Shown one piece after another: positions 29,528 to 49,868 of a stretch of 64,000 nt of DNA. The DNA is taken from the NCBI RefSeq assembly GCF_044647545.1, contig NZ_CP172818.1; one strand, 5' to 3'. The stretch's first letter is position 1. Each line of letters opens with the position of its first letter. Both the position numbers and the translations under genes were made by a program. This DNA comes from Escherichia coli (GTDB lineage Bacteria; Pseudomonadota; Gammaproteobacteria; Enterobacterales; Enterobacteriaceae). The notes beneath the pieces are model-generated. The model had not been told where the DNA came from, did no database searches, and saw only the letters and a program-made list of their open reading frames with translations.

Positions 29528-30445
29528 TTAGCTCACCAATTGCCACTGCCTTTTTTCCATCACTGGAGAACTAATCACTGACATTAACAACTCTTTCACT
29601 GCCTGTGCCTGTGGCGATAAGTTCGCTCTGGCGGGTAAATTTAATGACAAAGAGAGACTCATGGAAGGCGTGGTAATGCGTGACATCCACCCATTTACTG
29701 CGCCACATAACGAACGCGCGGCCGATTCGGGTAATACTGCAACGCCCATGCCGCTGGCAATCGCTGCGGTAAGCGTAGCAATAGACTCAATTTCACCAAT
29801 GACTTTTGCCGTGAGCCGCCGTAGGGAAAACGCCTCATCAACACGAAGTCTAACAGCGCTGTAATCACTGGGGAGAAAAAGGTTCATTTGTGCAATAGCA
29901 TTAACATCAACGCTTTGCCCCGGGCAATCTTGAGTTCCTACCAGGAAAAGATCTTCTTTCAGCAAAGCCTGACTGGATACACCAGCCACAGGGGAATGCT
30001 CATAAATCACCGCCATATCGAGTTGTTGATTTATCAGTTTTTCGTTAAGCACTGCACCGCTATTTTCATGAAGATAGATAACGACCTCCGGGAATTCAGC
30101 GCGAACCGCCTGTAATAAGGGCATGGTGATGGATGACGCAGCGGTTCCTGGCGCAAAGCCAATCGAGACTTGCCCCGATAATGCCTGACCAACGTTATGC
30201 ACCGCCAGTTGGGCCTGCTCACACTGACGTAAAATGGCCCGCGCATGGGTATAGAGAATTTTTCCGGCGTCTGTTGGCGTAACGCCCCGTTTTGTGCGAA
30301 TCAAAAGTTGTTGATTTAACTCACCTTCGAGTGTGGCAACCTGCTGGCTGAGCGCTGGTTGTGCGATATGCAATACTTCAGCAGCCTGAGTCAGGCTACC
30401 AATATCTACAATTTTTACGAAGTATTTCAGGCGTCTGAAGTTCAT
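29528..30445 (-). CDS. nac: Nitrogen assimilation control protein (LysR family)
   Basis: Start MNFRRLKYFVKIVDIGSLTQAAEVLHIAQPALSQQ...; track ORF has 10-aa extension. Confidence 0.85.
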   Translation of the reverse strand: MNFRRLKYFVKIVDIGSLTQAAEVLHIAQPALSQQVATLEGELNQQLLIRTKRGVTPTDAGKILYTHARAILRQCEQAQLAVHNVGQALSGQVSIGFAPGTAASSITMPLLQAVRAEFPEVVIYLHENSGAVLNEKLINQQLDMAVIYEHSPVAGVSSQALLKEDLFLVGTQDCPGQSVDVNAIAQMNLFLPSDYSAVRLRVDEAFSLRRLTAKVIGEIESIATLTAAIASGMGVAVLPESAARSLCGAVNGWMSRITTPSMSLSLSLNLPARANLSPQAQAVKELLMSVISSPVMEKRQWQLVS

Positions 30446-30498
30446 GTTGCCTCCGGTTTTTGAGAATCGGCCCAAGTGCCGCCATTACTTACAACCAG

Positions 30499-30515
30499 AT
30501 TGCAAGATGCTTGCC
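30499..30515 (-). promoter_or_regulatory. Sigma-54 promoter (-24/-12) for nac
   Basis: Minus strand reads TGGCAAGCATCTTGCA, matching TGGCAC-N5-TTGCA about 55 bp upstream of nac start. Confidence 0.6.
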
Positions 30516-30770
30516 AGTTTTATTTTGGCGTTGATGTACAAGCTAACCAACTGTCAAATAAGAGATTATGATAGATTCGTCATTGGCTCTTTTCACCAGC
30601 AGTCGCGTTCCCCTGCCCTATAAAAGGAGGGTATGCACCACGATGGTTCATTACCAATAAGATTGAAATCTCATCACTTTGTTGAAATTGACAGCAAACA
30701 AACAAAAAAATGCATTTCACCCTTTGACATCACCATGCACTGCCATTAATATGCGCCCCGTTCACACGAT

Positions 30771-30846
30771 TCCTCTGTAGTTCAGTCGGTAGAACGGCGG
30801 ACTGTTAATCCGTATGTCACTGGTTCGAGTCCAGTCAGAGGAGCCA
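30771..30846 (+). tRNA. asnV: tRNA-Asn (GUU), canonical
   Basis: Exact 76-nt match to asnT sequence. Confidence 0.9.
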
Positions 30847-34275: not shown

Positions 34276-35691
34276 ACCGACTCCTGATTCAAATGTATGA
34301 TGGTATTCATTGAACAGAACAATGGATCCCCCACCGTTGCTGACCGCAAAACATTTACGCGATTAATACTGCGCGTAATATAATTAAAAATCCAGCATTC
34401 TCAATCCATTACGAAATAAGATGGCATTACGGAATAGCCAGACTTTCTCGTGTTAACGTCCGACAAAATGCGTCATTGACAGCGGTTTCTGTGGATTGAC
34501 ACATTTCATTCAGATAATGAATTAATGCTACTGCCGGAACAACCAGCAAACGGGCATTGTGTTCTGAAATCCAGGCTATTGATTCAACGTCAGCGACAGA
34601 TCTGCGCTGTAAAAGAACTTGTAAAACAACGTAATAGAATTATCCGGAATGGTGGCCTAGAACACCACAATTTCGCTCTCTCGGTAAGGCACTGTCACAG
34701 CATTCAACAGAATGTGACTTGCCAGATTTATTAGCGCCACCAGATGTTTAACCGGGTAACCACGACCCAGTCGGGGATATATTCCATCTTCTCGCTGACA
34801 TCATCAAGAATAAAAAGGTTTATCACACTCAGAGCAACGTTCTTCAGCAGGCGGGATAATTCTTCAACATTTAGAAGATGTGTTATTAAAGGCATACAAA
34901 CTGGACGTATTGTATTTTCTTTTGGTGGTTGACCTAAGGTAGCAGTTTATCCTGATGCGCTGAGATTTCTGTAATATCTACGTCAACATTCTCCTCGAAT
35001 AGAAAATGCAGCCCCGGCAAGTGATTCACATTTTTTAACAAAACGTTGTTAGCGTGCCATTTTCAGAAGCTCTCCAAGAAAGCGAATTCTTTTCTCAAAT
35101 TCTGCATTCTCAGACACAGCTTTCTACTCCATGGTAATGGCCCAAATACGAAGTTGCTCAGGATCATTAGTGGTGCTGAGAAGTTAAATAACCATGCGGA
35201 GTACCACTCGTCATCACGTATTTATATATCATGAAGCTATTGTTGTGTTTTGTACATCAGTAGATATATTCTGATATACTCCTTTTGCTAGACATAACCT
35301 TTCACCTGCTTGCAAAGCTTCTGTGTTCTGACATTGCCAAATTGTTGCAATTCTGTATCCAGCCTTCTTTCAGTCATAGCTTCGGGCCGCGATAAGACTC
35401 ACTGATCTGACCCTGATTCCTCTTGCAGACTTTATAGACCAATTAAAATGCAGTTTCTGCAGGTCAACGTCTGACCATCATTGTCATCACTCTGGCCATT
35501 AGAGTAACCTTCTGCATTCATCCTTTTGTAAAAAGTTTATATTAGTATCAGCAATTAACCGGACCTGATACTGATATGAGTCTTACCGCATATACGGTCA
35601 ATTTCAGCAATTAATTACATTATCCACGCCAAAGTATTTGTCATCACAATGATGGTACCTTCTTTCAGACACCATTTTTTCAACTCCGTTT

Positions 35692-35732
35692 TCCACGGAC
35701 CGCACTCTTATGTCAAGAGTGCGGTCCGTGGA
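35692..35732. repeat. Perfect 18-bp inverted repeat with 5-nt spacer
   Basis: TCCACGGACCGCACTCTT-atgtc-AAGAGTGCGGTCCGTGGA; no T-run after it. Confidence 0.9.
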
Positions 35733-35883
35733 TACAACCAGAGACCGACTGACACGAGTCAGAGGAAACGACGGATATGTTCAGTCGTAAAATATCTATC
35801 AAAAAACATGATTAAGGTCAAAAATGTTTGATATTTACAATTTATGAAGATGACAATAATTATAGATATATGAGAACATAAAT

Positions 35884-35904
35884 GAAAATAATTATCATTA
35901 CAGC
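35884..35904 (+). promoter_or_regulatory. Fur-box-like sequence upstream of TonB-dependent receptor gene
   Basis: GAAAATAATTATCATTACAGC resembles Fur consensus GATAATGATAATCATTATC. Confidence 0.35.
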
Positions 35905-36254
35905 AATCATTTGTACTTTGTATTAATGAGGGATGAAATGTTATATAATATACCTTGTCGAATTTATATCCTTTCCACTCTGTCATTATGCATTTCTGGG
36001 ATAGTTTCTACTGCAACCGCAACTTCTTCAGAAACAAAAATCAGCAACGAAGAGACGCTCGTCGTGACCACGAATCGTTCGGCAAGCAACCTTTGGGAAA
36101 GCCCGGCGACTATACAGGTTATTGACCAACAAACATTGCAGAACTCCACCAATGCCTCCATAGCCGATAATTTGCAGGACATCCCCGGAGTAGAGATAAC
36201 AGACAACTCCTTGGCAGGCCGTAAACAAATCCGCATTCGTGGCTGGATTTGCCC

Positions 36255-37160
36255 CTATATTTCCAGACATCTGTTATCACTTAACCCATTACAAGCCCGC
36301 TGCCGCAGATATTCCCGTGGCGAGCGATAACCCAGCGCACTATGCGGATGCCATTCGTTATAATGCTCGAACGCCTCTGCAAGGTTCTTTGCTGCCGTTA
36401 ACCCGTCTGGTTTGGGCATGATACTGATGTAGTCACGCTTTATCGTTTTCACGAAGCTCTCTGCTATTCCGTTACTCTCCGGACTCCGCACCGCCGTGTT
36501 CTTCGGTTCAAGTCCCAACATCCGGGCGAACTGGCGTGTTTCATTAGCCCGGTAGCATGAACCATTATCCGTCAGCCACTCCACTGGAGACGACGGAAGA
36601 TCGTTGCCGAAGCGGCGTTCCACCGCTCCCAGCATGACGTCCTGTACTGTTTCACTGTTGAAGCCGCCGGTAGTGACCGCCCAGTGCAGTGCCTCACGAT
36701 CACAGCAGTCCAGCGCGAACGTGACACGCAGTCTCTCTCCGTTATCACAGCAGAACTCGAACCCGTCAGAGCACCATCGCTGATTGCTTTCTTTCACGGC
36801 CACTCTGCCTGTATGTGCCCGTTTCGATGGCGGTACAGCAGGTTTTCGCTCAAGCAACAGCGCATTCTGGCGCATGATCCGGTAAACACGTTTGGCATTG
36901 ATCGCAGGCATACCATCAAGTTCTGCCTGTCTGCGAAGCAGCGCCCATACCCGACGATAACCATACGTTGGCAGCTCTCCGATAACATGGTGTATACGGA
37001 GAAGCACATCCGTATCATCAGTGTGACGACTGCGGCGGCCATCCATCCAGTCATCGGTTCGTCTGAGAATGACGTGCAACTGCGCACGCGACACCCGGAG
37101 ACAACGGCTGACTAAGCTTACTCCCCATCCCCGGGCAATAAGGGCGCGTGCGCTATCCAC
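36255..37160 (-). CDS. insD: IS2 transposase OrfB (DDE integrase domain)
   Basis: 301-aa [33 protein letters not shown]... matches InsD. Confidence 0.9.
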
Positions 37161-37482
37161 TTTTTTGCCCGTCCATATTCAACGGCTTCTTTGAGGAGTT
37201 CATTTTCCATCGTTTTCTTGCCGAGCAGGCGCTGGAGTTCTTTAATCTGCTTCATGGCAGCAGCAAGTTCAGAGGCAGGAACGACCTGTTCTCCGCGGCG
37301 ACAGCAGTAAGACTTCCCCCCTGGATTGCTTGCGCCAGAGAAATAACTGGCTGGCTGCTACACCGTGTTGCCGGGCAACAAGGGAGGCCGTCATTCCCGG
37401 TTCAAAGCTCTGCTGAACAATAGCGCTCTTTTCCTGTGTAGTACGCCGTCTGCGTTTCTCCGGTCCCTAAGACATCAATCAT
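37118..37482 (-). pseudogene. insC: IS2 OrfA (InsC), out of frame in this copy
   Basis: ATG...TAA span is 365 nt (not a multiple of 3); MIDVLG then frame lost; later frames still encode [12 protein letters not shown]...LFLWRKQ and ...[45 protein letters not shown]. Confidence 0.65.
37160..37167 (-). promoter_or_regulatory. IS2 programmed -1 frameshift slippery site (A6G)
   Basis: Minus strand CAAAAAAG at the insC/insD overlap. Confidence 0.6.
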
Positions 37483-37804
37483 CTGTTCTCCAATGACTAA
37501 GTCAAAAACTAGAATATTAAGACTATCACTTATTTAAGTGATATTGGTTGTCTGGAGATTCTGGGGGCTAGTCTAGTGGCGAAGCATCCTCCCGTGTTTT
37601 AATTCTCATTGATGGTCAGGAGGTAACTTATCAGCGCGCCGGAGATAATTATGGTGTGGGACTGTTGATAGATGAGTCTGCGCTGGAGCGTGTTGAGATA
37701 GTGAAAGGTCCATATTCCGTACTGTACGGTTCACAGGCAATTGGCGGTATTGTTAACTTCATCACCAAAAAGGGTGAATCTCCAGACTCCCTATATCACT
37801 TAAA

Positions 37805-38515
37805 TTGATACAACTTTTTAGAGTAGTCATTAGTGAACAGATAATTGATAACTCAGAACCAGTAAAATGCAAAAGACGCACCACGCTGGGAAAATCGCTG
37901 CTATTCAGCAGAGTTTTGTATCGAGAATGGTGGCCAGCCACTTATTGCTCTCGCGTAAGCGGGTACCGTGACATTCTGCCCGAACTGGACCTGGTACTGT
38001 GGCTGATTAAAGCCGATGACCGTGCCCTGTCTGTGGATGAGTATTTCTGGCGACACATCCTGCACCGGGGACATCAGCGGGTACTGTTTGTGGTGATGCA
38101 GGCCGATAAAACGGAGCCCTGCCATGAATGGGATATGGCCGGTATTCAGCCTTCTCCCGCACAGGCACAGAACATTCGCGAAAAAACGGAGGCGGTATTC
38201 CGTCTGTTCCGGCCCGTACATCGGGTTGTTGCCGTATCGGCCCGCACCGGCTGGGAACTGGATACGCTGGTCAGTGCGCTCATGACAGCACTTCCCGACC
38301 ATGCCGCCAGTCCCCTGATGACCCGCCTGCAGGACGAGCTGCGCACGGAATCTGTCCGCGCTCAGGCCCGTGAACAGTTTACCGGTGCGGTGGACCGGAT
38401 ATTTGACACGGCGGAGAGCGCCTGTATTGCCTCTGTTGCACGCACGGTTCTGCGTGCCGTCCGTGACTCGGTGGTCTCTGTTGCCCGCGCGGTATGGAAC
38501 TGGATTTTCTTCTGA
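37805..38515 (+). pseudogene. yeeP: Prophage GTPase-like protein, N-terminally truncated (no P-loop)
   Basis: 236-aa ORF matches the C-terminal part of YeeP-type GTP-binding proteins; no GxxxxGK[ST] motif present. Confidence 0.55.
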
Positions 38516-38609
38516 ACCGGTGGTGACTGATGCCCTCCCTGACTCTGAGTCTGCTCACAAAAGCACTGTTTTCGTTACTGTCTCTCTTGTCCGTGCAATA
38601 GCTCAATAA

Positions 38610-38818
38610 TAGAATAAAACGATCAATATCTATTTTATCGATCGTTTATATCGATCGATAAGCTAATAATAACCTTTGTCAGTAACATGCACAGATACGT
38701 ACAGAAAGACATTCAGGGAACAACAGAACCACAATTCAGAAACTCCCACAGCCGGACCTCCGGCACTGTAACCCTTTACCTGCCGGTATCCACGTTTGTG
38801 GGTACCGGCTTTTTTATT
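38610..38818 (+). ncRNA. isrC: Small RNA IsrC region (5' leader upstream of flu); boundaries approximate
   Basis: Position between yeeP and flu; ends at intrinsic terminator CCGGTATCCAC-gttt-GTGGGTACCGG plus T6 (38780..38818). Confidence 0.4.
38621..38656 (+). promoter_or_regulatory. Three GATC sites (Dam/OxyR phase-variation switch of Ag43)
   Basis: GATC at 38621, 38640 and 38653 within aacGATCaatatctattttatcGATCgtttatatcGATCgataag, about 200 bp upstream of flu. Confidence 0.75.
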
Positions 38819-38842
38819 CACCCTCAATCTAAGGAAAAGCTG

Positions 38843-41800
38843 ATGAAACGACATCTGAATACCTGCTACAGGCTGGTATGGAATCACATGACGGGCGCTT
38901 TCGTGGTTGCCTCCGAACTGGCCCGCGCACGGGGTAAACGTGGCGGTGTGGCGGTTGCACTGTCTCTTGCCGCAGTCACGTCACTCCCGGTGCTGGCTGC
39001 TGACATCGTTGTGCACCCGGGAGAAACCGTGAACGGCGGAACACTGGCAAATCATGACAACCAGATTGTCTTCGGTACGACCAACGGAATGACCATCAGT
39101 ACCGGGCTGGAGTATGGGCCGGATAACGAGGCCAATACCGGCGGGCAATGGGTACAGGATGGCGGAACAGCCAACAAAACGACTGTCACCAGTGGTGGTC
39201 TTCAGAGAGTGAACCCCGGTGGAAGTGTCTCAGACACGGTTATCAGTGCCGGAGGCGGACAGAGCCTTCAGGGACGGGCTGTGAACACCACGCTGAATGG
39301 TGGCGAACAGTGGATGCATGAGGGGGCGATAGCCACAGGAACCGTCATTAATGATAAGGGCTGGCAGGTCGTCAAGCCCGGTACAGTGGCAACGGATACC
39401 GTTGTTAATACCGGGGCGGAAGGGGGACCGGATGCAGAAAACGGTGATACCGGGCAGTTTGTTCGCGGGGATGCCGTACGCACAACCATCAATAAAAACG
39501 GTCGCCAGATTGTGAGAGCTGAAGGAACGGCAAATACCACTGTGGTTTATGCCGGCGGCGACCAGACTGTACATGGTCACGCACTGGATACCACGCTGAA
39601 TGGGGGATACCAGTATGTGCACAACGGCGGTACAGCGTCTGACACTGTTGTGAACAGTGACGGCTGGCAGATTGTCAAAAACGGGGGTGTGGCCGGGAAT
39701 ACCACCGTTAATCAGAAGGGCAGACTGCAGGTGGACGCCGGTGGTACAGCCACGAATGTCACCCTGAAGCAGGGCGGCGCACTGGTTACCAGTACGGCTG
39801 CAACCGTTACCGGCATAAACCGCCTGGGAGCATTCTCTGTTGTGGAGGGTAAAGCTGATAATGTCGTACTGGAAAATGGCGGACGCCTGGATGTGCTGAC
39901 CGGACACACAGCCACTAATACCCGCGTGGATGATGGCGGAACGCTGGATGTCCGCAACGGTGGCACCGCCACCACCGTATCCATGGGAAATGGCGGTGTA
40001 CTGCTGGCCGATTCCGGTGCCGCTGTCAGTGGTACCCGGAGCGACGGAAAGGCATTCAGTATCGGAGGCGGTCAGGCGGATGCCCTGATGCTGGAAAAAG
40101 GCAGTTCATTCACGCTGAACGCCGGTGATACGGCCACGGATACCACGGTAAATGGCGGACTGTTCACCGCCAGGGGCGGCACACTGGCGGGCACCACCAC
40201 GCTGAATAACGGCGCCATACTTACCCTTTCCGGGAAGACGGTGAACAACGATACCCTGACCATCCGTGAAGGCGATGCACTCCTGCAGGGAGGCTCTCTC
40301 ACCGGTAACGGCAGCGTGGAAAAATCAGGAAGTGGCACACTCACTGTCAGCAACACCACACTCACCCAGAAAGCCGTCAACCTGAATGAAGGCACGCTGA
40401 CGCTGAACGACAGTACCGTCACCACGGATGTCATTGCTCAGCGCGGTACAGCCCTGAAGCTGACCGGCAGCACTGTGCTGAACGGTGCCATTGACCCCAC
40501 GAATGTCACTCTCGCCTCCGGTGCCACCTGGAATATCCCCGATAACGCCACGGTGCAGTCGGTGGTGGATGACCTCAGCCATGCCGGACAGATTCATTTC
40601 ACCTCCACCCGCACAGGGAAGTTCGTACCGGCAACCCTGAAAGTGAAAAACCTGAACGGACAGAATGGCACCATCAGCCTGCGTGTACGCCCGGATATGG
40701 CACAGAACAATGCTGACAGACTGGTCATTGACGGCGGCAGGGCAACCGGAAAAACCATCCTGAACCTGGTGAACGCCGGCAACAGTGCGTCGGGGCTGGC
40801 GACCAGCGGTAAGGGTATTCAGGTGGTGGAAGCCATTAACGGTGCCACCACGGAGGAAGGGGCCTTTGTCCAGGGGAACAGGCTGCAGGCCGGTGCCTTT
40901 AACTACTCCCTCAACCGGGACAGTGATGAGAGCTGGTATCTGCGCAGTGAAAATGCTTATCGTGCAGAAGTCCCCCTGTATGCCTCCATGCTGACACAGG
41001 CAATGGACTATGACCGGATTGTGGCAGGCTCCCGCAGCCATCAGACCGGTGTAAATGGTGAAAACAACAGCGTCCGTCTCAGCATTCAGGGCGGTCATCT
41101 CGGTCACGATAACAATGGCGGTATTGCCCGTGGGGCCACGCCGGAAAGCAGCGGCAGCTATGGATTCGTCCGTCTGGAGGGTGACCTGATGAGAACAGAG
41201 GTTGCCGGTATGTCTGTGACCGCGGGGGTATATGGTGCTGCTGGCCATTCTTCCGTTGATGTTAAGGATGATGACGGCTCCCGTGCCGGCACGGTCCGGG
41301 ATGATGCCGGCAGCCTGGGCGGATACCTGAATCTGGTACACACGTCCTCCGGCCTGTGGGCTGACATTGTGGCACAGGGAACCCGCCACAGCATGAAAGC
41401 GTCATCGGACAATAACGACTTCCGCGCCCGGGGCTGGGGCTGGCTGGGCTCACTGGAAACCGGTCTGCCCTTCAGTATCACTGACAACCTGATGCTGGAG
41501 CCACAACTGCAGTATACCTGGCAGGGACTTTCCCTGGATGACGGTAAGGACAACGCCGGTTATGTGAAGTTCGGGCATGGCAGTGCACAACATGTGCGTG
41601 CCGGTTTCCGTCTGGGCAGCCACAACGATATGACCTTTGGCGAAGGCACCTCATCCCGTGCCCCCCTGCGTGACAGTGCAAAACACAGTGTGAGTGAATT
41701 ACCGGTGAACTGGTGGGTACAGCCTTCTGTTATCCGCACCTTCAGCTCCCGGGGAGATATGCGTGTGGGGACTTCCACTGCAGGCAGCGGGATGACGTTC

Positions 41801-42076: not shown

Positions 42077-43615
42077 GTGACTATGTTACAGATAGTCGGC
42101 GCGCTGATCCTGCTGATCGCAGGATTTGCCATTCTTCGCCTTTTGTTCAGAGCATTAATCAGCACGGCTTCTGCGCTGGCAGGGCTCATATTGCTGTGTC
42201 TGTTCGGCCCGGCCTTACTGGCTGGCTATATCACCGAACGCATAACCCGGTTGTTCCATATTCGCTGGCTGGCAGGCGTATTTCTGACGATTGCCGGAAT
42301 GATCATCAGCTTCATGTGGGGACTTGATGGTAAACATATCGCGCTGGAGGCTCACACCTTTGACTCTGTGAAATTTATTCTGACCACCGCTCTCGCCGGT
42401 GGTCTGCTGGCTGTTCCCCTGCAGATCAAAAACATTCAGCAGAACGGGATCACACCAGAAGATATCAGCAAGGAAATTAACGGGTATTACTGCTGTTTTT
42501 ATACTGCCTTTTTCCTTATGGCGTGTTCTGCATGCGCACCATTGATCGCGTTACAGTACGATATTTCACCGTCACTGATGTGGTGGGGCGGGTTGTTGTA
42601 CTGGCTGGCTGCATTAGTGACGCTGCTATGGGCGGCCAGCCAGATCCAGGCGCTGAAAAAACTGACCTGTGCCATCAGCCAGACACTGGAAGAACAACCG
42701 GTGCTCAACAGTAAATCGTGGCTGACCAGTTTGCAAAACGATTACAGCCTTCCTGACTCACTGACGGAGCGCATCTGGCTGACGCTCATTTCTCAACGGA
42801 TTTCCCGGGGAGAGCTGAGGGAATTTGAACTGGCAGACGGAAACTGGTTACTGAACAATGCCTGGTATGAAAGAAACATGGCAGGGTTTAACGAACAGTT
42901 GAAAGAGAACCTGTCATTCACACCTGATGAACTGAAAACGCTCTTCCGGAACCGCCTGAATTTATCACCGGAAGCGAATGACGATTTTCTCGATCGTTGC
43001 CTGGACGGCGGTGACTGGTATCCCTTTTCAGAAGGTCGCCGTTTTGTATCATTCCATCACGTGGATGAGCTTCGTATCTGTGCCTCCTGCGGGCTGACAG
43101 AAGTACATCATGCCCCGGAAAATCATAAGCCGGATCCGGAATGGTACTGCTCCTCTCTTTGTCGCGAAACAGAAACACTGTGTCAGGAAATTTATGAACG
43201 CCCTTACAACAGCTTTATTTCCGATGCAACGGCGAATGGTCTGATTCTCATGAAACTGCCGGAAACCTGGAGTACAAATGAGAAAATGTTTGCTTCCGGA
43301 GGGCAGGGACATGGGTTTGCCGCTGAACGGGGAAACCATATTGTCGACAGAGTCCGTCTGAAAAACGCACGGATCCTCGGTGATAATAATGCCAGAAATG
43401 GAGCAGACAGACTGGTCAGCGGAACAGAAATCCAGACGAAATATTGTTCAACTGCAGCCCGTAGCGTCGGTGCGGCATTCGACGGACAAAACGGACAGTA
43501 TCGTTACATGGGAAATAATGGCCCCATGCAACTGGAAGTCCCCCGTGATCAGTATGCCGGCGCTGTTGAAACCATGAGGAATAAGATCCGCGAAGGTAAA
43601 GTAGAGGAGCGATGA
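42077..43615 (+). CDS. yeeR: Prophage inner-membrane protein of unknown function with Cys-rich C-terminal region
   Basis: 512-aa ORF; N-terminal TM helices; CASCG...CSSLC motif. Confidence 0.75.
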   Translation: MTMLQIVGALILLIAGFAILRLLFRALISTASALAGLILLCLFGPALLAGYITERITRLFHIRWLAGVFLTIAGMIISFMWGLDGKHIALEAHTFDSVKFILTTALAGGLLAVPLQIKNIQQNGITPEDISKEINGYYCCFYTAFFLMACSACAPLIALQYDISPSLMWWGGLLYWLAALVTLLWAASQIQALKKLTCAISQTLEEQPVLNSKSWLTSLQNDYSLPDSLTERIWLTLISQRISRGELREFELADGNWLLNNAWYERNMAGFNEQLKENLSFTPDELKTLFRNRLNLSPEANDDFLDRCLDGGDWYPFSEGRRFVSFHHVDELRICASCGLTEVHHAPENHKPDPEWYCSSLCRETETLCQEIYERPYNSFISDATANGLILMKLPETWSTNEKMFASGGQGHGFAAERGNHIVDRVRLKNARILGDNNARNGADRLVSGTEIQTKYCSTAARSVGAAFDGQNGQYRYMGNNGPMQLEVPRDQYAGAVETMRNKIREGKVEER

Positions 43616-44058
43616 CGCCCGGCGAGCGCAGTCTCATTCAGCGGGCCCTGAAAACCCTGGACCGCCATCTTCATGAACCCGGCGTGCCCTTCACCTCCAC
43701 CCGTGCGGCACGGGAATGGCTGATTCTGAACATGGCGGGACTGGAGCGTGAAGAATTCCGGGTGCTGTATCTGAATAACCAGAATCAGCTGATTGCCGGT
43801 GAAACCCTCTTCACCGGCACCATCAACCGCACGGAAGTCCATCCCCGGGAAGTGATTAAACGCGCCCTGTATCACAATGCCGCTGCCGTGGTGCTGGCAC
43901 ACAATCACCCGTCCGGTGAAGTCACACCCAGCAAGGCAGACTGCCTTATCACGGAACGTCTGGTACAGGCACTGGGCCTGGTGGATATCCGGGTGCCGGA
44001 CCATCTGATAGTCGGTGGCAACCAGGTTTTCTCCTTTGCCGAACATGGTCTGCTTTAA
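43612..44058 (+). CDS. yeeS: RadC-like JAMM-domain protein
   Basis: 148-aa ORF with HNHPSGE JAMM motif. Confidence 0.8.
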   Translation: MTPGERSLIQRALKTLDRHLHEPGVPFTSTRAAREWLILNMAGLEREEFRVLYLNNQNQLIAGETLFTGTINRTEVHPREVIKRALYHNAAAVVLAHNHPSGEVTPSKADCLITERLVQALGLVDIRVPDHLIVGGNQVFSFAEHGLL

Positions 44059-44120
44059 CCCGTCACAACCACATCACACCTGTTTTCACTTTTATCTTCT
44101 GTCTTCAGAGGTATCCCACT

Positions 44121-44342
44121 ATGAAAATTATCACCCGTGGCGAAGCCATGCGTATTCACCGTCAGCATCCGGCATCCCGTCTTTTTCCGTTCTGTACCGG
44201 CAAATACCGCTGGCACGGCAGTGCTGAAGCTTATACCGGTCGTGAAGTGCAGGATATTCCCGGTGTGCTGGCCGTGTTTGCCGAACGCCGTAAGGACAGT
44301 TTTGGTCCGTATGTCCGGCTGATGAGCGTCACCCTGAACTGA
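44121..44342 (+). CDS. yeeT: DUF987-family small protein
   Basis: 73-aa ORF MKIITRGEAMRIHRQHPASRLFPFCTGKYRWHGSAEAYTGREV... Confidence 0.75.
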   Translation: MKIITRGEAMRIHRQHPASRLFPFCTGKYRWHGSAEAYTGREVQDIPGVLAVFAERRKDSFGPYVRLMSVTLN

Positions 44343-44416
44343 AAGTGGGAATTCTGCTCATCAGAATTATCACCACTACCGAACCATTCTTACCGATTTT
44401 CTGTAAGGATTTTATC

Positions 44417-44785
44417 GTGTCAGACACACTCTCCGGGACAACACATCCCGACGACAATCACGACCACCCCTGGTGGGGACTACCCTGCACCGTGACGCCC
44501 TGTTTCGGCGCCCGTCTGGTGCAGGAGGGTAACCGCTTGCATTACCTTGCCGACCGCGCCGGTAACAGAGGCCTGTTCAGCGATGCAGATGCGTACCCCC
44601 TGGACCAGGCCTTTCCGCTGCTGATGAAACAACTGGAACTCATGCTCACCAGCGGTGAACTGAATCCCCGCCATCAGCATACCGTCACACTGTATGCGAA
44701 GGGGCTGACCTGTGAAGCTGACACCCTCGGCAGCTGTGGTTACGTTTATCTGGCTGTTTATCCGACGCCCGAAACGAAAAATTAA
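44417..44785 (+). CDS. cbeA: Type IV antitoxin (cytoskeleton bundling-enhancing factor)
   Basis: GTG start; VSDTLSGTTHPDDNHDHPWWGLPCTVTPCFGARLVQEGNRLHYLADRAG... matches CbeA/YeeU. Confidence 0.8.
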   Translation: MSDTLSGTTHPDDNHDHPWWGLPCTVTPCFGARLVQEGNRLHYLADRAGNRGLFSDADAYPLDQAFPLLMKQLELMLTSGELNPRHQHTVTLYAKGLTCEADTLGSCGYVYLAVYPTPETKN

Positions 44786-44873
44786 CCCACCGGAATAACC
44801 TTCTGCTCCGGCCTGGTGCTTTCACCACGCCACTTTTCCATTTTTATCTCTGCATATCAGGAAAATCTTCAGT

Positions 44874-45246
44874 ATGAAAACATTACCCGTATTACCCGGG
44901 CAGGCGGCGTTCTCGCCCGTCTCCTGTTACCATCTGGCAGATACTGCTCACCCGATTACTGGACCAGCACTACAGCCTTACGCTGAATGACACACCGTTC
45001 GCCGATGAACGCGTGATTGAGCAGCATATTGAGGCAGGCATTTCACTGTGTGATGCAGTGAACTTTCTCGTGGAAAAATACGTACTGGTACAACTGACCA
45101 GCCGGGATTCAGCGCCGGAACCCGTCTCAGTTAATCAACAGCATTGATATCCTCCGGGCTCGCCGGGCAACCGGTCTGATGACCCGCAGCAACTACAGAA
45201 CGGTAAATAACATTACCCTGGGTAAGTATCCGGAGGCGAAAAATGA
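44874..45246 (+). pseudogene. cbtA: Type IV toxin CbtA (YeeV), frameshifted at least twice
   Basis: [12 protein letters not shown] then frame lost; second frame [54 protein letters not shown]; third frame DILRARRATGLMTR.NYRTVNNITLGKYPEAK runs into yeeW. Confidence 0.7.
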
Positions 45247-45439
45247 AATGACGCTGGAAGCCGACAGCGTTAACGTACAGGCGCTGGATATGGGGCACAT
45301 TGTCGTTGACGTCGATGGTGTTAATCTCACTGAACTGATTAATAAAGCCGCTGAAAACGGTTATTCACTCCGCGTGGTGGATGACCGTGACACTACCGAA
45401 ACACCGGCAACTTCTGCCAGCCCTCATCAGTTGCCGTAA
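45247..45439 (+). CDS. yeeW: Small prophage protein
   Basis: MTLEADSVNVQALDMGHIVVDVDGVNLTELINKAAENGYSLRVVDDRD...; in this sequence its frame is continuous with the last cbtA fragment. Confidence 0.6.
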
Positions 45440-45479
45440 GACAATACAGTGATACAGAGTATAATGCCATTAGCCACAG

Positions 45480-45492
45480 AAAAAAAAAAAAA
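45480..45492. repeat. A13 homopolymer
   Basis: 13 consecutive A downstream of yeeW. Confidence 0.9.
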
Positions 45493-45605
45493 CAGCACTG
45501 TTGTCCTGTATTAAACAGGCAAGAGAAGATATCCATACCCTGCGCCATCTGCAGCTTCTGCACCAGAACCGGTGAATCTCACTCAACAGACTTCATTTCC
45601 CCTGA

Positions 45606-45637
45606 CGCCAGCCTGAATACAGCTGGCGTTTTCATTT
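45606..45637 (+). terminator. Intrinsic-terminator-like hairpin
   Basis: CGCCAGC-ctgaataca-GCTGGCG followed by TTTTCATTT. Confidence 0.45.
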
Positions 45638-45733
45638 ATATACAGAAAGGAAAACCGATAATAATGGAATGGACGCCCCGACCATGAAGCAACGGTAGGA
45701 TATTACTGATAAACCTTCCAGTGGAGGTGCGTT

Positions 45734-45813
45734 ATGGCCGTTTTAACGATTAGCATTGACCTGACAAAAAATGAATTCCAAATCCACGGTCTGGGTAGGA
45801 ACAGAAAAATCTA
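45734..45813 (+). pseudogene. N-terminal remnant of an IS110-family-like transposase (26 codons then stop)
   Basis: MAVLTISIDLTKNEFQIHGLGRNRKI resembles the xGIDxxKxxFQ.HG start of IS110-family transposases. Confidence 0.35.
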
Positions 45814-45889
45814 AGCTCAGAAAACGGATTAAAGTAAGCGTCAACGGAGCACCATATTGACGCTTATTTATTGGTGAGAACTACGTTCC

Positions 45890-46246
45890 ATGGCAGGAGT
45901 TCGTCAACACGGTTGGAGGGCCATTCCGGCAGTATGCTCAGAATATGGCGCAGATACGCTTCCGGATCGATACCGTTCAGACGGCAGGTGCCTGCTTTTC
46001 CGGCAACAAGCAGGAATCTCAGCGCTGAAGCAGGAATTAGAGGTAAAAACGCCCTACCGGGCCATGAATCACCCGGTCATTGGAGTAGTAACCAAAGCAG
46101 ATTTAGCCAGCATGGAACAAATATCTTTGGTGAAATGTTGGTTACGGGAAGCTGGAGCGCACAACGTGTTAGTAACCAGTGCGGTTAATAACAATGGAGT
46201 TACAGAACTTTTTGCCTTGCTGCATACAGAAGAAGGCTGCCGCTAA
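45890..46246 (+). pseudogene. yoeF: EutP/PduV-family GTPase C-terminal fragment
   Basis: 118-aa ORF ending ...HPVIGVVTKADLASMEQISLVKCWLREAGAHNVLVTSAVNNNGVTELFALL; lacks N-terminal P-loop. Confidence 0.55.
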
Positions 46247-46346
46247 TTTCGATAGGTTCTCAGATGAGAATGATGACGGTGATACACAGATAAGAATCAA
46301 TGAGCAATGAGGGTTGCCGGGCAACCCTCATTGAATAAAACAGGAA

Positions 46347-46676
46347 TTACTTCGCTTCGCCGTTTTTCATTTCGCCCATAGCTTTCAGCTTTTTGGAGAT
46401 ATCGCGGCGTTCTTTGGAGAGCTCGGCATTTTTGATGATGTAATCGTCAACGCGATCTTCATAGTCACCTTTCATGCTGGCGATGATGCCCTGGATTGCT
46501 TCAACGCTCATCCCTGGCTTGATGTAATCGCTCAGGTTGTCCAGCAACAGGACGCGCTTCTGGTTGTCACGGATCTTTTTCTCAACGTCCTGAATTTCAC
46601 GTTGCAGTTTGTTCTTACGACGGAACAGACGAACAAATTCCAGTACGTCCTGGAATGAAGGCTTGGTAGTTTCCAT
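46347..46676 (-). CDS. yeeX: DUF496-family protein
   Basis: Internal start [42 protein letters not shown]... Confidence 0.8.
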
Positions 46677-46847
46677 TTTTATACCCCTGATAATGTGAGA
46701 GTCGGATTCGTTTAAGCAACCGCTATTCGATAGGGCCAACATTACTCATAGCTGCCGCAGATGACAATGCTTTTATCCCTTTTCACTATCATACCCTTTA
46801 TCCTTGCTGAATCGAAGCAGCAGCAAGATGATTCTGAAGTTCAGGAA

Positions 46848-47906
46848 TTATTTGCGCAAGGCCCGGCAAATCAGATTCGATAGCAACTCAAGCTGATGCG
46901 CCGTTTCCATGTTCAGCCACACATAACCATAGATTGGTGTTTCCACAACCTTCAGGTCATGGTGGTTATTAAGCAACAGACGCAGCTCTTCCACAGCATC
47001 GTTCAATTTTTCCGTATTGGCAAAAACCGGCTGCGGATTACCTTCGTACAGCGCATGAACAAGGCTCAGCAGTATTTGCTGCATCATGTGCTGGGTATCA
47101 CGAAGTTTTTGCGCGTTCAATAACACGAAATGGCTGGGGCGCGTGGCCCAGTATGCATTGATTTGCAACTCCAGCATACAAACCAGATTGCGGTTAATGG
47201 TCTGGATACCTTCATATATCGATTTTGGAATACGGGTTTCTTTGCTGGCGGGCGCAATCAGCCCACGCATTTTCACGGCATCGGTCAGCAGTTTTTGTAG
47301 ATGGCTTTCCAGACGTGGGCGTTCGAGTAAGTTCGGTGAGAATGCAGATTGATAGACCCGATTATACTCGGTCAGACTTTTCGCCAGTTGAATGCGCCAG
47401 TGGATGAACGCCCGTTGTGGCCAGATACCGGTAAACAACATTGCCAGTAAAGAGCCGAGGATCACATCGCCGCTTCGCCATAACGCCGTATCAATTTCAC
47501 CTGTCGGGGAACCCACAACAATTGCCAGCGTCACCCCAATCAATAATCCTTGATACGGTTTCTTGCCCAGCGCCAGCCAACCGCAAAGAAACATCGCCGC
47601 CGCGCACCAGACTAACATCAGCGGTAACGAAATTAACTCCAGTTGCAGAGCGATAAGACCTAAAATCGAACCCAACACCGTACCGCCAATACGTTCGAAG
47701 GCACGAGGGACAACGTTCCCCCAGAACGAGATTGGCCCCATAATCACCACCATGGTGACCAGCGGCCAGGTGCTTTCCGGGATAGTAAACAGGCGGATAA
47801 TGAGAAAAGTGAGCAGGAATGCCAGCGCGACCCGAGTACCATGCACAATGCGGTAATGGCGGTATACCCGGATTTCAAACGGGCTTAATGACTTATCGGC
47901 ACGCAC
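46848..47906 (-). CDS. yeeA: FUSC-like inner-membrane protein
   Basis: 352-aa polytopic ORF matching YeeA. Confidence 0.8.
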   Translation of the reverse strand: MRADKSLSPFEIRVYRHYRIVHGTRVALAFLLTFLIIRLFTIPESTWPLVTMVVIMGPISFWGNVVPRAFERIGGTVLGSILGLIALQLELISLPLMLVWCAAAMFLCGWLALGKKPYQGLLIGVTLAIVVGSPTGEIDTALWRSGDVILGSLLAMLFTGIWPQRAFIHWRIQLAKSLTEYNRVYQSAFSPNLLERPRLESHLQKLLTDAVKMRGLIAPASKETRIPKSIYEGIQTINRNLVCMLELQINAYWATRPSHFVLLNAQKLRDTQHMMQQILLSLVHALYEGNPQPVFANTEKLNDAVEELRLLLNNHHDLKVVETPIYGYVWLNMETAHQLELLSNLICRALRK

Positions 47907-48103
47907 GCAGAAACTCCGTAATGAAGATTAAAAGCGCTCATAACACATCTGTCGGCCAGAAGGCGCGCCTCTGAGTTATCCGACGGACATACCGGGAACA
48001 GTGTAATTTCCCGGCAGGAGCGAAAAATTTGAAAGGCGCATCTTACTCTTTTCGCTTTCAAAAAAAGAGTGGTCTTCGCGTCAACACACCGCCCTGAGAT
48101 GAA

Positions 48104-48577
48104 TTAGTGATGTTTTGGCTGCACCGCAACATACATTTCGATATCCCAGTACCCATCTTCCGCGCCATTGTTCAAGTAAACCTCGAAGCAGGGCTTTGGT
48201 AACATTTCATAGGCACTGTCCTGCAAGAGGCTATTAAAGAACTGATACCAGGGTTTAGCAAAATCATCACCGACTACACGAGCCACCGCCACCGCATACT
48301 GACCACCTGAAATTTCTGTCAGAATGACGCCCTCACTGTTTTCGGGGAGCGTAAAGTTATTCGGCACCGTCACGACGGTGTCGCAGCGTAATTTTTCGGC
48401 GGGTGTTTCATCTGGATTGTCGTAATAGACAGCAACCCACTCCTTCGGCACAATATTTTTGCTATCTATCCACATCATCAACTGCTCAAAGCCTTTCTTT
48501 ACCGTCTGTTCCCACGGGCCAACGAGATGGAAACCTGCAACGGTACGTTTATCTTCCTGCTTAATCTCGTAGTTCAT
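48104..48577 (-). CDS. sbmC: DNA gyrase inhibitor (SOS-induced)
   Basis: 157-aa [50 protein letters not shown]...; LexA box upstream. Confidence 0.85.
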
Positions 48578-48591
48578 GACGCCCCCATTAA

Positions 48592-48611
48592 TACTGTTTT
48601 TATATACAGTA
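48592..48611. promoter_or_regulatory. LexA (SOS) box upstream of sbmC
   Basis: TACTGTTTTTATATACAGTA is a perfect palindromic CTGT-N8-ACAG LexA box. Confidence 0.75.
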
Positions 48612-48695
48612 TAGTTGCAATATTAAAACCACAAGGAATGAGTGTTGATTATGCGAGCAGACTCGCACTCCTGCCAGTCTGCTGCAAAAGAAAGG

Positions 48696-49868
48696 TCAGG
48701 CCTTATGGTGGAAATAATCACTCAGCCGGGAAAACATGCTGCCTTCCCCGACAGATTCCAGGGTAACCAGCGGCCAGTGCGCCACCTGTTTATCACGGTC
48801 GTAAAGTTCAATTTCCCCTACCCGCTGATGGGCGCTAATTGGCGCGGTGAGTTCTTTACCATCAAGGGTATATTTGGCTTTGATATGTGGAATTTCGGCT
48901 TTCGGTAGCACCATCCAGAACTCTTGTTCCGTTCCCAGGGCGATATTTTCTTTATCGCCATACCAGATGCGTTCCGTACCAACCTTTTTCCCACGGTGCA
49001 AAATTTGCACCGTAGTAAAGTTTTGTTGACCCCAACGCAGTAATTTTCTTGCCTCTTCCTCACGACCTTTTGCGCTGTCAGCCCCCATTACCACTGCAAT
49101 GAGACGACGCTGCCCATCTACAGCCGAAGCAATGAGATTAAACCCGGCACCAGAAGTATGACCCGTTTTCAGGCCGTCAACATTCATGGTTTTATCCCAC
49201 AATAACCCGTTACGGTTTTGCTGGGTGATACCGTTCCAGGTGAGGCTTTTCTCACTGTACATATGATAAAACTCGGGCTCGCCGTGGATGATAGCGCGAG
49301 AAAGCACAGCTAAATCATAAGCCGAGCTATGCTGGCCAGGTGCATCCAGACCATGCACTGTTTCAAAATGCGTATCCTTGAGATGCAGCTTCTCGGCATA
49401 GTTGTTCATCATTTCAACAAACTGCCGTTGCCCACCGGCAATATAGTCAGCCAGTGCAACACAAGCGTCATTTCCGGAATCCACAATTAAACCACGGCTT
49501 AAATCACGTACCGATACGCGATCGCCCTCTTTCAAAAACATCAGTGAAGAACCGACAAACACCGGATTATCTTTCGCCCACGCATCACGCCCCACGGTGA
49601 CAATATCGTCTGGCGTAATGCGATGACTATCGATAGCACGATCCACGACATAGCCCGTCATCAGCTTTGTCAGGCTGGCGGGATTGCGCTGTTGATGCTC
49701 ATTACCCGCGGTGAGAATCTGACCGGTGGTGTAATCCATCAATACCCAGGACCCGGCATGAATCTCTGGAGGCTGAGGTGAAAAAGGAATGTTTTCCGCC
49801 GCAAAACCAGACGATAAATTAAAAACGAACAAAGAAGCAGCAATAATAAGACGGCGTTTCAACAGCAA
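48696..49868 (-). CDS. dacD: D-alanyl-D-alanine carboxypeptidase (PBP6b)
   Basis: ORF with signal peptide, SxxK (SLTK), SGN and KTG motifs. Confidence 0.85.
   Translation of the reverse strand: MLLKRRLIIAASLFVFNLSSGFAAENIPFSPQPPEIHAGSWVLMDYTTGQILTAGNEHQQRNPASLTKLMTGYVVDRAIDSHRITPDDIVTVGRDAWAKDNPVFVGSSLMFLKEGDRVSVRDLSRGLIVDSGNDACVALADYIAGGQRQFVEMMNNYAEKLHLKDTHFETVHGLDAPGQHSSAYDLAVLSRAIIHGEPEFYHMYSEKSLTWNGITQQNRNGLLWDKTMNVDGLKTGHTSGAGFNLIASAVDGQRRLIAVVMGADSAKGREEEARKLLRWGQQNFTTVQILHRGKKVGTERIWYGDKENIALGTEQEFWMVLPKAEIPHIKAKYTLDGKELTAPISAHQRVGEIELYDRDKQVAHWPLVTLESVGEGSMFSRLSDYFHHKA

Follow-up and report, generated by a model that had tools for sequence, protein, structure and literature searches.

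IS2, an insertion sequence of the IS3 family (IS2 group), has ends that combine an outer 11-bp cleavage domain with an inner protein-binding domain, and the transposase chemistry joins the terminal nucleotide of the IS2 end (Lewis et al., PMC3299598). Partial copies of insertion sequences are present in Escherichia coli K-12; IS911A in CP4-6, which is truncated at nt 764 and interrupted by IS30A, is a dead IS fragment that lies in a cryptic prophage or island, with rearrangement joints on its sides. Copies such as this one are annotated in the MG1655 record, which also places a full IS2 (IS2F) within yoeA and curates CP4-44 at 2066020-2078748, leaving 311 bp unannotated (2070475-2070785) between yoeA and yeeP. 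Full-text literature searches on yoeA together with yeeP, CP4-44 or IS2 returned no description of a fragment at this site.

We examined the corresponding region in a 64,000-nucleotide stretch of E. coli DNA (contig NZ_CP172818.1, assembly GCF_044647545.1), hereafter the window, which is K-12-like and runs from cobUST through CP4-44 towards sbcB, colinear with MG1655 and ~98% identical to it. An earlier note on this DNA had pointed to a short IS2-like sequence where yoeA gives way to yeeP. The IS2-like sequence occupies 37775-37965, and the explanation that we favor, with a probability of about 0.88 for the explanation as a whole, is that this interval is a non-functional remnant of an old IS2-family (IS3 family) element, bracketed by two deletions. 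The relic resembles IS911A in kind and in setting but, unlike it, falls in a gap in the annotation.

Results

The yoeA-yeeP interval contains the left end of an IS2-family element

The features of the interval, in the order in which they occur on the chromosome, are as follows.

35938..36243, plus strand: first part of yoeA (fragment 1), covering codons 1-102 of the 716 in this TonB-dependent receptor gene, 100% identical to intact O157:H7 yoeA (L002 3662-4005)
36244..37575, minus strand: full-length IS2 of 1332 bp within yoeA, where MG1655 annotates IS2F
37576..37774, plus strand: yoeA fragment 2, up to codon 168 (...FITKKG); identity to intact yoeA (L002, L016) 99.5-100%
37775..37965, plus strand: IS2-family relic of 191 bp, IS2 nt 14 to ~246, truncated on either side and in the orientation opposite to the full IS2
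37775..37805, plus strand: inner (protein-binding) part of the left inverted repeat, 28/31 to IS2 nt 14-44
37841..37965, plus strand: remains of the 5' part of the InsC/InsA homologue orfA in decayed form (codons 1 to ~52), from alignment and tblastn
37963..37965, plus strand: GTA, a 3-nt microhomology at the joint of relic and yeeP (relic ...AAGCGGGTA, intact yeeP ...CCCTGTACCGTGAC)
37966..38515, plus strand: yeeP without its 5' part, retaining codons 108-290 and the stop codon of a gene for a 290-aa GTPase-family protein (YkfA/YfjP type), from BLASTP

IS2 ancestry is seen in the inverted repeat, in which 28 of the 31 positions from 37775 to 37805 (TGAATCTCCAGACTCCCTATATCACTTAAAT) equal nt 14-44 of the canonical IS2 left repeat (IRL). 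Two blocks of the inner repeat, TGAATCTCCAGAC and ATATCACTTAAAT, are the same as in IS2, and the three mismatches are all confined to a segment in which the left and right ends of IS2 themselves differ. The only other IRL match within the window is the left end of the full IS2, to which the match at 37775 is 90% complementary over 30 nt in inverted orientation (pair I3), and in 100 shuffles of the window that preserved dinucleotides the real count of matches was never reached (mean per shuffle, 0.00). The earlier note had recognized the match, its orientation opposite to the full IS2 and its distance of about 200 bp from it, all of which hold, the relic beginning 199 bp beyond the IS2; its start at 37776 and its count of 25 of about 30 positions need correction to 37775 and to the higher figure given here.

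The similarity continues beyond the repeat as four colinear blocks of inverted similarity that a repeat finder identified between the left end of IS2 and 37776-37960.

Block I3: 90% complementarity to the IS2 left end
Block I1: 73% complementarity to the IS2 left end
Block I2: 76% complementarity to the IS2 left end
Block I5: 86% complementarity to the IS2 left end

Comparison with MG1655 IS2F by blastn aligned 37775-37929 with IS2 nt 14-181 at 71.4% identity and 37933-37960 with nt 218-245 at 89% identity, giving a relic that is ~71% identical to IS2 overall, with the similarity stopping at about nt 246. It comprises the left repeat minus the outer 13 nt, the leader and the decayed first ~50 codons of orfA, and by comparison with IS2 it has lost 12-14 nt immediately internal to the repeat and 33 nt within orfA. 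In orfA, which in IS2 encodes a helix-turn-helix protein, ATA (37841-37843) stands in place of the ATG start codon, a frameshift is also present, and tblastn with MG1655 InsC recovers the remnants IIDNSEPVKCKRRTT and KIAAIQQSF in two different frames; these protein matches are short (E = 0.004-0.02 in a two-sequence comparison) and the nucleotide colinearity is clear. The relic contains no orfB DDE transposase, programmed -1 frameshift window, right repeat or 5-bp duplication, and the only right repeat and target duplication nearby are those of the separate full IS2. Set against the left end of IS2, the order of parts is colinear and the leader and orfA codons 1 to ~52 are recognizable, but only ~18% of the element is left; the outer 13 nt of the repeat, the right repeat, orfB and the frameshift window are missing, and the remnant cannot transpose. 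The suggestion in the earlier note of a scar of an older IS2 is borne out in that this is a remnant of an IS2-type element and not native yoeA, although it measures 191 bp rather than ~30 bp.

The left joint interrupts yoeA at codon 168

Intact 716-codon yoeA genes (O157:H7 and strain 144) agree with the window at 99.5-100% identity as far as 37774 and bear no relation to it from 37775 onward, and after codon 168 they read GGDKLASGVV... where the window has the relic. The end of yoeA had been placed at the IS2 match by the earlier note, and the homology indeed stops there, at codon 168 of 716. The joint (37774|37775) is blunt in the junction alignment, with no shared base and no target duplication. 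The yoeA frame extends 34 nt into the relic, where it meets a stop codon at 37806-37808, which would suit a reading of the match as chance similarity or as native yoeA coding sequence. We consider the probability of that reading to be negligible: no shuffle was comparable, the similarity spans 191 bp colinear with IS2, intact yoeA of other strains, which had been named as the comparison to make, diverges exactly at 37775, and the same 191 bp lies beside an aspA-like gene in other genomes. The shuffle test and the comparison with intact yoeA together exclude chance or native yoeA.

The 13 nt that precede 37775 are yoeA sequence, and the relic repeat, lacking its outer 13 nt, thus lacks the 11-bp cleavage domain. 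The outer nucleotides are retained in the sister copies L003 and L004 (the latter from strain C1) as TAGGCTGGCCCCC and TAGACTGGCCCCC, respectively.

The full IS2 is a separate insertion into yoeA, with yoeA codons 103-168 to its right (37576/37581-37774). It is flanked by the 5-bp target duplication GTGGC (36239-36243 and 37576-37580), and the two yoeA halves overlap by 5 bp on intact yoeA; the MG1655 record labels the counterpart of 35938..36243 'gene fragment 1 of yoeA'. The proximity of the relic to the IS2 left end, at 199 bp, and their inverted-repeat relationship would be expected of a recent partial copy of, or gene conversion from, this adjacent IS2. With only ~71% identity between the two, and with the relic present at 99.5-100% identity in four inspected strains that have no IS2 in yoeA (two at the yoeA site and two beside the aspA-like gene), a recent copy is refuted and its probability is close to nil.

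The full IS2 copy is itself non-canonical. Its 23 differences from MG1655 IS2F cluster at 37259-37569, the left ~315 bp of the element, orfA is split by frameshifts near 37294 and 37324 into ORFs of 41 aa and 45 aa, and no genome in the collection matches its left end plus the yoeA flank at more than 95.5%. This copy may be a mosaic, decayed IS2 or an assembly with errors, and its capacity to encode working OrfA/OrfAB is in doubt.

The right joint enters yeeP at codon 108

The relic ends in ...AAGCGGGTA in all contexts examined, and megablast matches to intact yeeP begin at 37963. Truncated YeeP shares 180 of 183 residues with positions 108-290 of the intact J31 protein (BLASTP), and PGAP labels the gene 'GTPase family protein, missing N-terminus'. 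The chimeric ORF 37805-38515 starts inside the relic and reads yeeP in frame. The earlier note had yeeP begin at the match itself (37808); the homology begins at 37963-37966, codon 108 of 290, ~190 bp further on, and the interval between is IS2-like. DNA folding at this joint is unremarkable (z = -0.84).

The yeeP segment shows a divergence of its own. At 37981-38522 it differs from MG1655 by ~3.5%, the relic and yoeA differ at two positions only (37698 and 37784), and isrC-flu to the right of yeeP shows no differences for ~5 kb. Strain 144 carries, in place, a yeeP with 99.8% identity to the window allele, and BS-04 and BHUCD01 carry mixtures of the two alleles. By its sequence pattern this looks like a recombination or gene-conversion patch confined to the yeeP homology. 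Between yeeP and flu, the small RNA isrC (Rfam IS102) is matched at full length at 38619-38822 (252.6 bits), as expected for the locus.

Other E. coli genomes retain the intact arrangement

In strain 144 (NZ_CP023364.1), the three pieces that adjoin one another in the window are found colinearly and apart, as intact yoeA, 46,171 bp, a relic with the full repeat, 17,121 bp and intact yeeP. The island between cobU and yeeX/tmaR in this strain is arranged as follows.

Left part: cobUST, a cobalamin pseudogene, an IS4 fragment, intact yoeA, ibrBA-like and metabolic genes, and an aspA-like gene
Right part: the full-repeat relic, an IS911-like fragment on the opposite strand, an IS66 fragment, the interval from a PfkB kinase gene to an ISL3 element, P4-like genes, and yeeP

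The window segments match strain 144 in the same order and orientation at 100% (yoeA), 100% (relic) and 99.8% (yeeP) identity. Compared with this island, the window is without the DNA between yoeA and relic (46.2 kb) and between relic and yeeP (17.1 kb), and after yeeP it continues with isrC-flu where strain 144 has a dynamin-family cluster. As strain 144 holds the three pieces colinearly, the window appears to carry two deletions that bracket the relic. The identical 191 bp, preceded by the 13 nt missing from the window (TAGGCTGGCCCCC), also occurs in LH10-b-1 and FDAARGOS_497, and in these strains as in strain 144 it lies just downstream of the aspartate ammonia-lyase (aspA-like) gene. The IS911-like fragment beside the relic is 80% identical to nt 11-764 of MG1655 IS911A, and it is convergent with the relic.

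A different arrangement is found in O103:H2 PV16-126 and in HUE1, in which codons 1-168 of yoeA are followed by the relic, the IS911 fragment and then metabolic genes, with no IS2 in yoeA; PV16-126 has a full-length yeeP ~17.6 kb to the right of the relic.

The two joints are nested in their distribution

Among 5,426 complete genomes, the joint of yoeA and relic occurs in 558 and the joint of relic and yeeP in 358, and both occur together in exactly 358, leaving 200 genomes, PV16-126 and HUE1 among them, with the first joint and not the second. Every genome with the yeeP joint thus also has the yoeA joint, which suggests that the 46-kb deletion took place before the 17-kb deletion. The joint of the relic with the IS911-like fragment is shared by both alleles of the relic, and because these are only 89% identical it is probably the oldest of the three.

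These two alleles are represented by 801 records at identity of at least 99% to the window copy and 1,485 records with the 89% allele. A distant blastn comparison with E. coli genomes returned three identity classes only (at least 99%, 89%, and 60-80%, the last comprising IS2 and IS2-like elements), and the 191 bp is conserved at 99.5-100% across several genomic contexts (100% in L003, L007 and L017). A close intact parent element was not found in E. coli genomes, plasmids or species-representative genomes. The nearest full-length elements belong to the IS2 family, at 71-73% identity to the window allele and 84-87% to the less decayed sister allele; the best full-length relatives on plasmids are likewise IS2-family elements at 84-87% to the sister allele, and no exact match to relic-specific 24/25-mers turned up in 100,044 species-representative genomes. 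IS2 is the closest known element, and because no close intact parent was found, 'IS2-family' would be a safer label for the relic than 'IS2'.

Discussion

Formation of the yoeA-yeeP junction

The junction can be accounted for by a succession of four events. The right side of the element would have been lost long ago at about IS2 nt 246, with fusion to the convergent IS911-like fragment. A deletion of ~46.2 kb would then have fused yoeA codon 168 with nt 14 of the repeat, in a blunt joint with no microhomology, and a further deletion of ~17.1 kb in a K-12-like lineage would have joined the inner end of the relic to yeeP codon 108 over the 3-nt GTA. The full IS2 would have entered the yoeA stump separately, 199 bp away, with a normal 5-bp duplication. 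The two deletions would be independent and non-homologous. Because neither joint is at an IS terminus, one lying 13 nt inside the repeat and the other inside orfA, and because target duplications are absent, the joints, with microhomology of 0 nt and 3 nt, are most readily attributed to illegitimate recombination and not to transposase chemistry. We also considered the 17-kb interval as an insertion with GTA as a 3-bp duplication, and rejected it, as such an insertion would have had to rebuild in frame an intact and widely conserved yeeP.

The earlier note had raised the possibility of an IS2-mediated rearrangement that set the island boundary, in which an IS2 or IS2-like transposase would have made the yoeA/yeeP junction by adjacent deletion or inversion and thereby fixed where CP4-44 begins on its left. 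In favor of this, the relic is indeed descended from the left end of an IS2-type element, and in strain C1 (L004) the repeat is complete to its tip and adjoins new DNA ~400 bp upstream of the yoeA site, the geometry that an IS-end-mediated deletion in that lineage would give. In the window, however, the yoeA joint lies within the repeat and the 11-bp cleavage domain is gone (PMC3299598), the other joint falls inside orfA, no target duplication is present, and the 200 genomes with the yoeA joint alone indicate that the yeeP boundary was not its product. The curated limits of CP4-44 also lie elsewhere, with yoeA and the relic internal to them, and neither an integrase gene nor a tRNA gene occurs at the joint, the nearest being the tRNA-Asn gene at 30771-30846. 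The position of the joint largely refutes transposase action as the origin of the junction, which we judge very unlikely, and the proposed boundary role does not survive these comparisons.

Strain C1 carries the 89% allele, and its complete left-repeat tip (L004 3945 against L005 6104) abuts DNA ~400 bp upstream of the yoeA start, with yoeA absent. This tip-precise joint is what an adjacent deletion mediated by an IS end would leave, unlike the joint in the window.

Upstream of the relic, four tRNA-Asn genes (13812, 26532, 28356 and 30771) and one tRNA-Ser gene (12731) lie within 12731-30846. Such tRNA genes are common integration sites of islands, and strain 144 has fyuA, the yersiniabactin receptor gene, in the corresponding stretch of its chromosome.

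One observation counts against the two-deletion explanation: on its left side the 17-kb deletion ends only 0-4 nt away from the much older joint between relic and IS911-like fragment, which is improbable for a random endpoint. Three independent endpoints in fact lie within ~25 bp, namely the IS2|IS911 fusion, the 17-kb deletion of the K-12 lineage and, in the strain-C1-type allele, a deletion of 736 bp that starts 19-22 nt from the old joint (window 37962-37965; L005 7188-7213), and three junction types are seen immediately to the right of ...GCGTAAGCGGGTA. An IS2 transposase-binding domain, preserved as judged by sequence, lies 160 bp from this joint. It is conceivable, though improbable, that the old joint of IS2-like and IS911-like DNA (37962-37965) is a recurrent deletion hotspot and not a passive scar, in which case a dead piece of IS would continue to direct rearrangements of the genome. 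The cluster of endpoints could be a coincidence or a local hotspot.

Present state of the relic

In the two-deletion explanation, the remnant would be inert today. The alternative, that the relic is kept for a function, would make it a binding site or decoy for IS2 OrfA/OrfAB or a weak rightward promoter for the ORF 37805-38515, isrC and flu. Both conserved protein-binding blocks are intact and the three mismatches fall in the end-variable segment, TGATACAAC sits where IS2 has the weak extended -10 motif TGATAGTCT, and the 191 bp is highly conserved across contexts. The high identity within an allele is, however, expected from recent common descent, the alleles are only 89% identical to each other, and the loss of the start codon, the frameshift and the deletions of 12-14 nt and 33 nt indicate free decay. 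A scan for promoter or terminator function remained at background, with no more promoter-like sites than in shuffled sequence, and a search of 35000-40000 with Rfam at the gathering threshold returned only IS102/isrC and nothing on the relic. We therefore rate retention for function as highly improbable, while a small possibility would be left for residual binding or transcription from the preserved domain and TGATACAAC.

Two further differences from MG1655 were seen elsewhere in the window. At 34656 the window has no IS5H, which in MG1655 (1195 bp) lies between yeeH and yoeG, so its source is a K-12-like genome other than MG1655. A second cluster of divergence at 43500-49300, with up to 49 differences per 500 bp near 45000, covers the 3' part of flu and yeeR-yeeS and suggests mosaic recombination inside CP4-44.

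Conclusions

The relic is relevant chiefly to the history of the locus and to its annotation in the curated MG1655 record, where it fills a gap. It corresponds to ~2070471-2070661 of MG1655, where 'yoeA fragment 2' runs four nt into it (window 37775-37778) and yeeP is annotated from 124 bp after the start of the yeeP homology, so that the 311-bp gap (window 37779-38089) contains the relic and the first 41 retained yeeP codons. The ORF that runs into yeeP is a chimera which begins in IS debris. The relic is an ordinary IS2-family fossil, previously unannotated, and represents no new kind of element or mechanism. Its value is in what it records of the island: yoeA and yeeP probably became neighbors through two deletions, of ~46 kb and ~17 kb, from a larger island, and not through a single IS2 event or the integration of a prophage.
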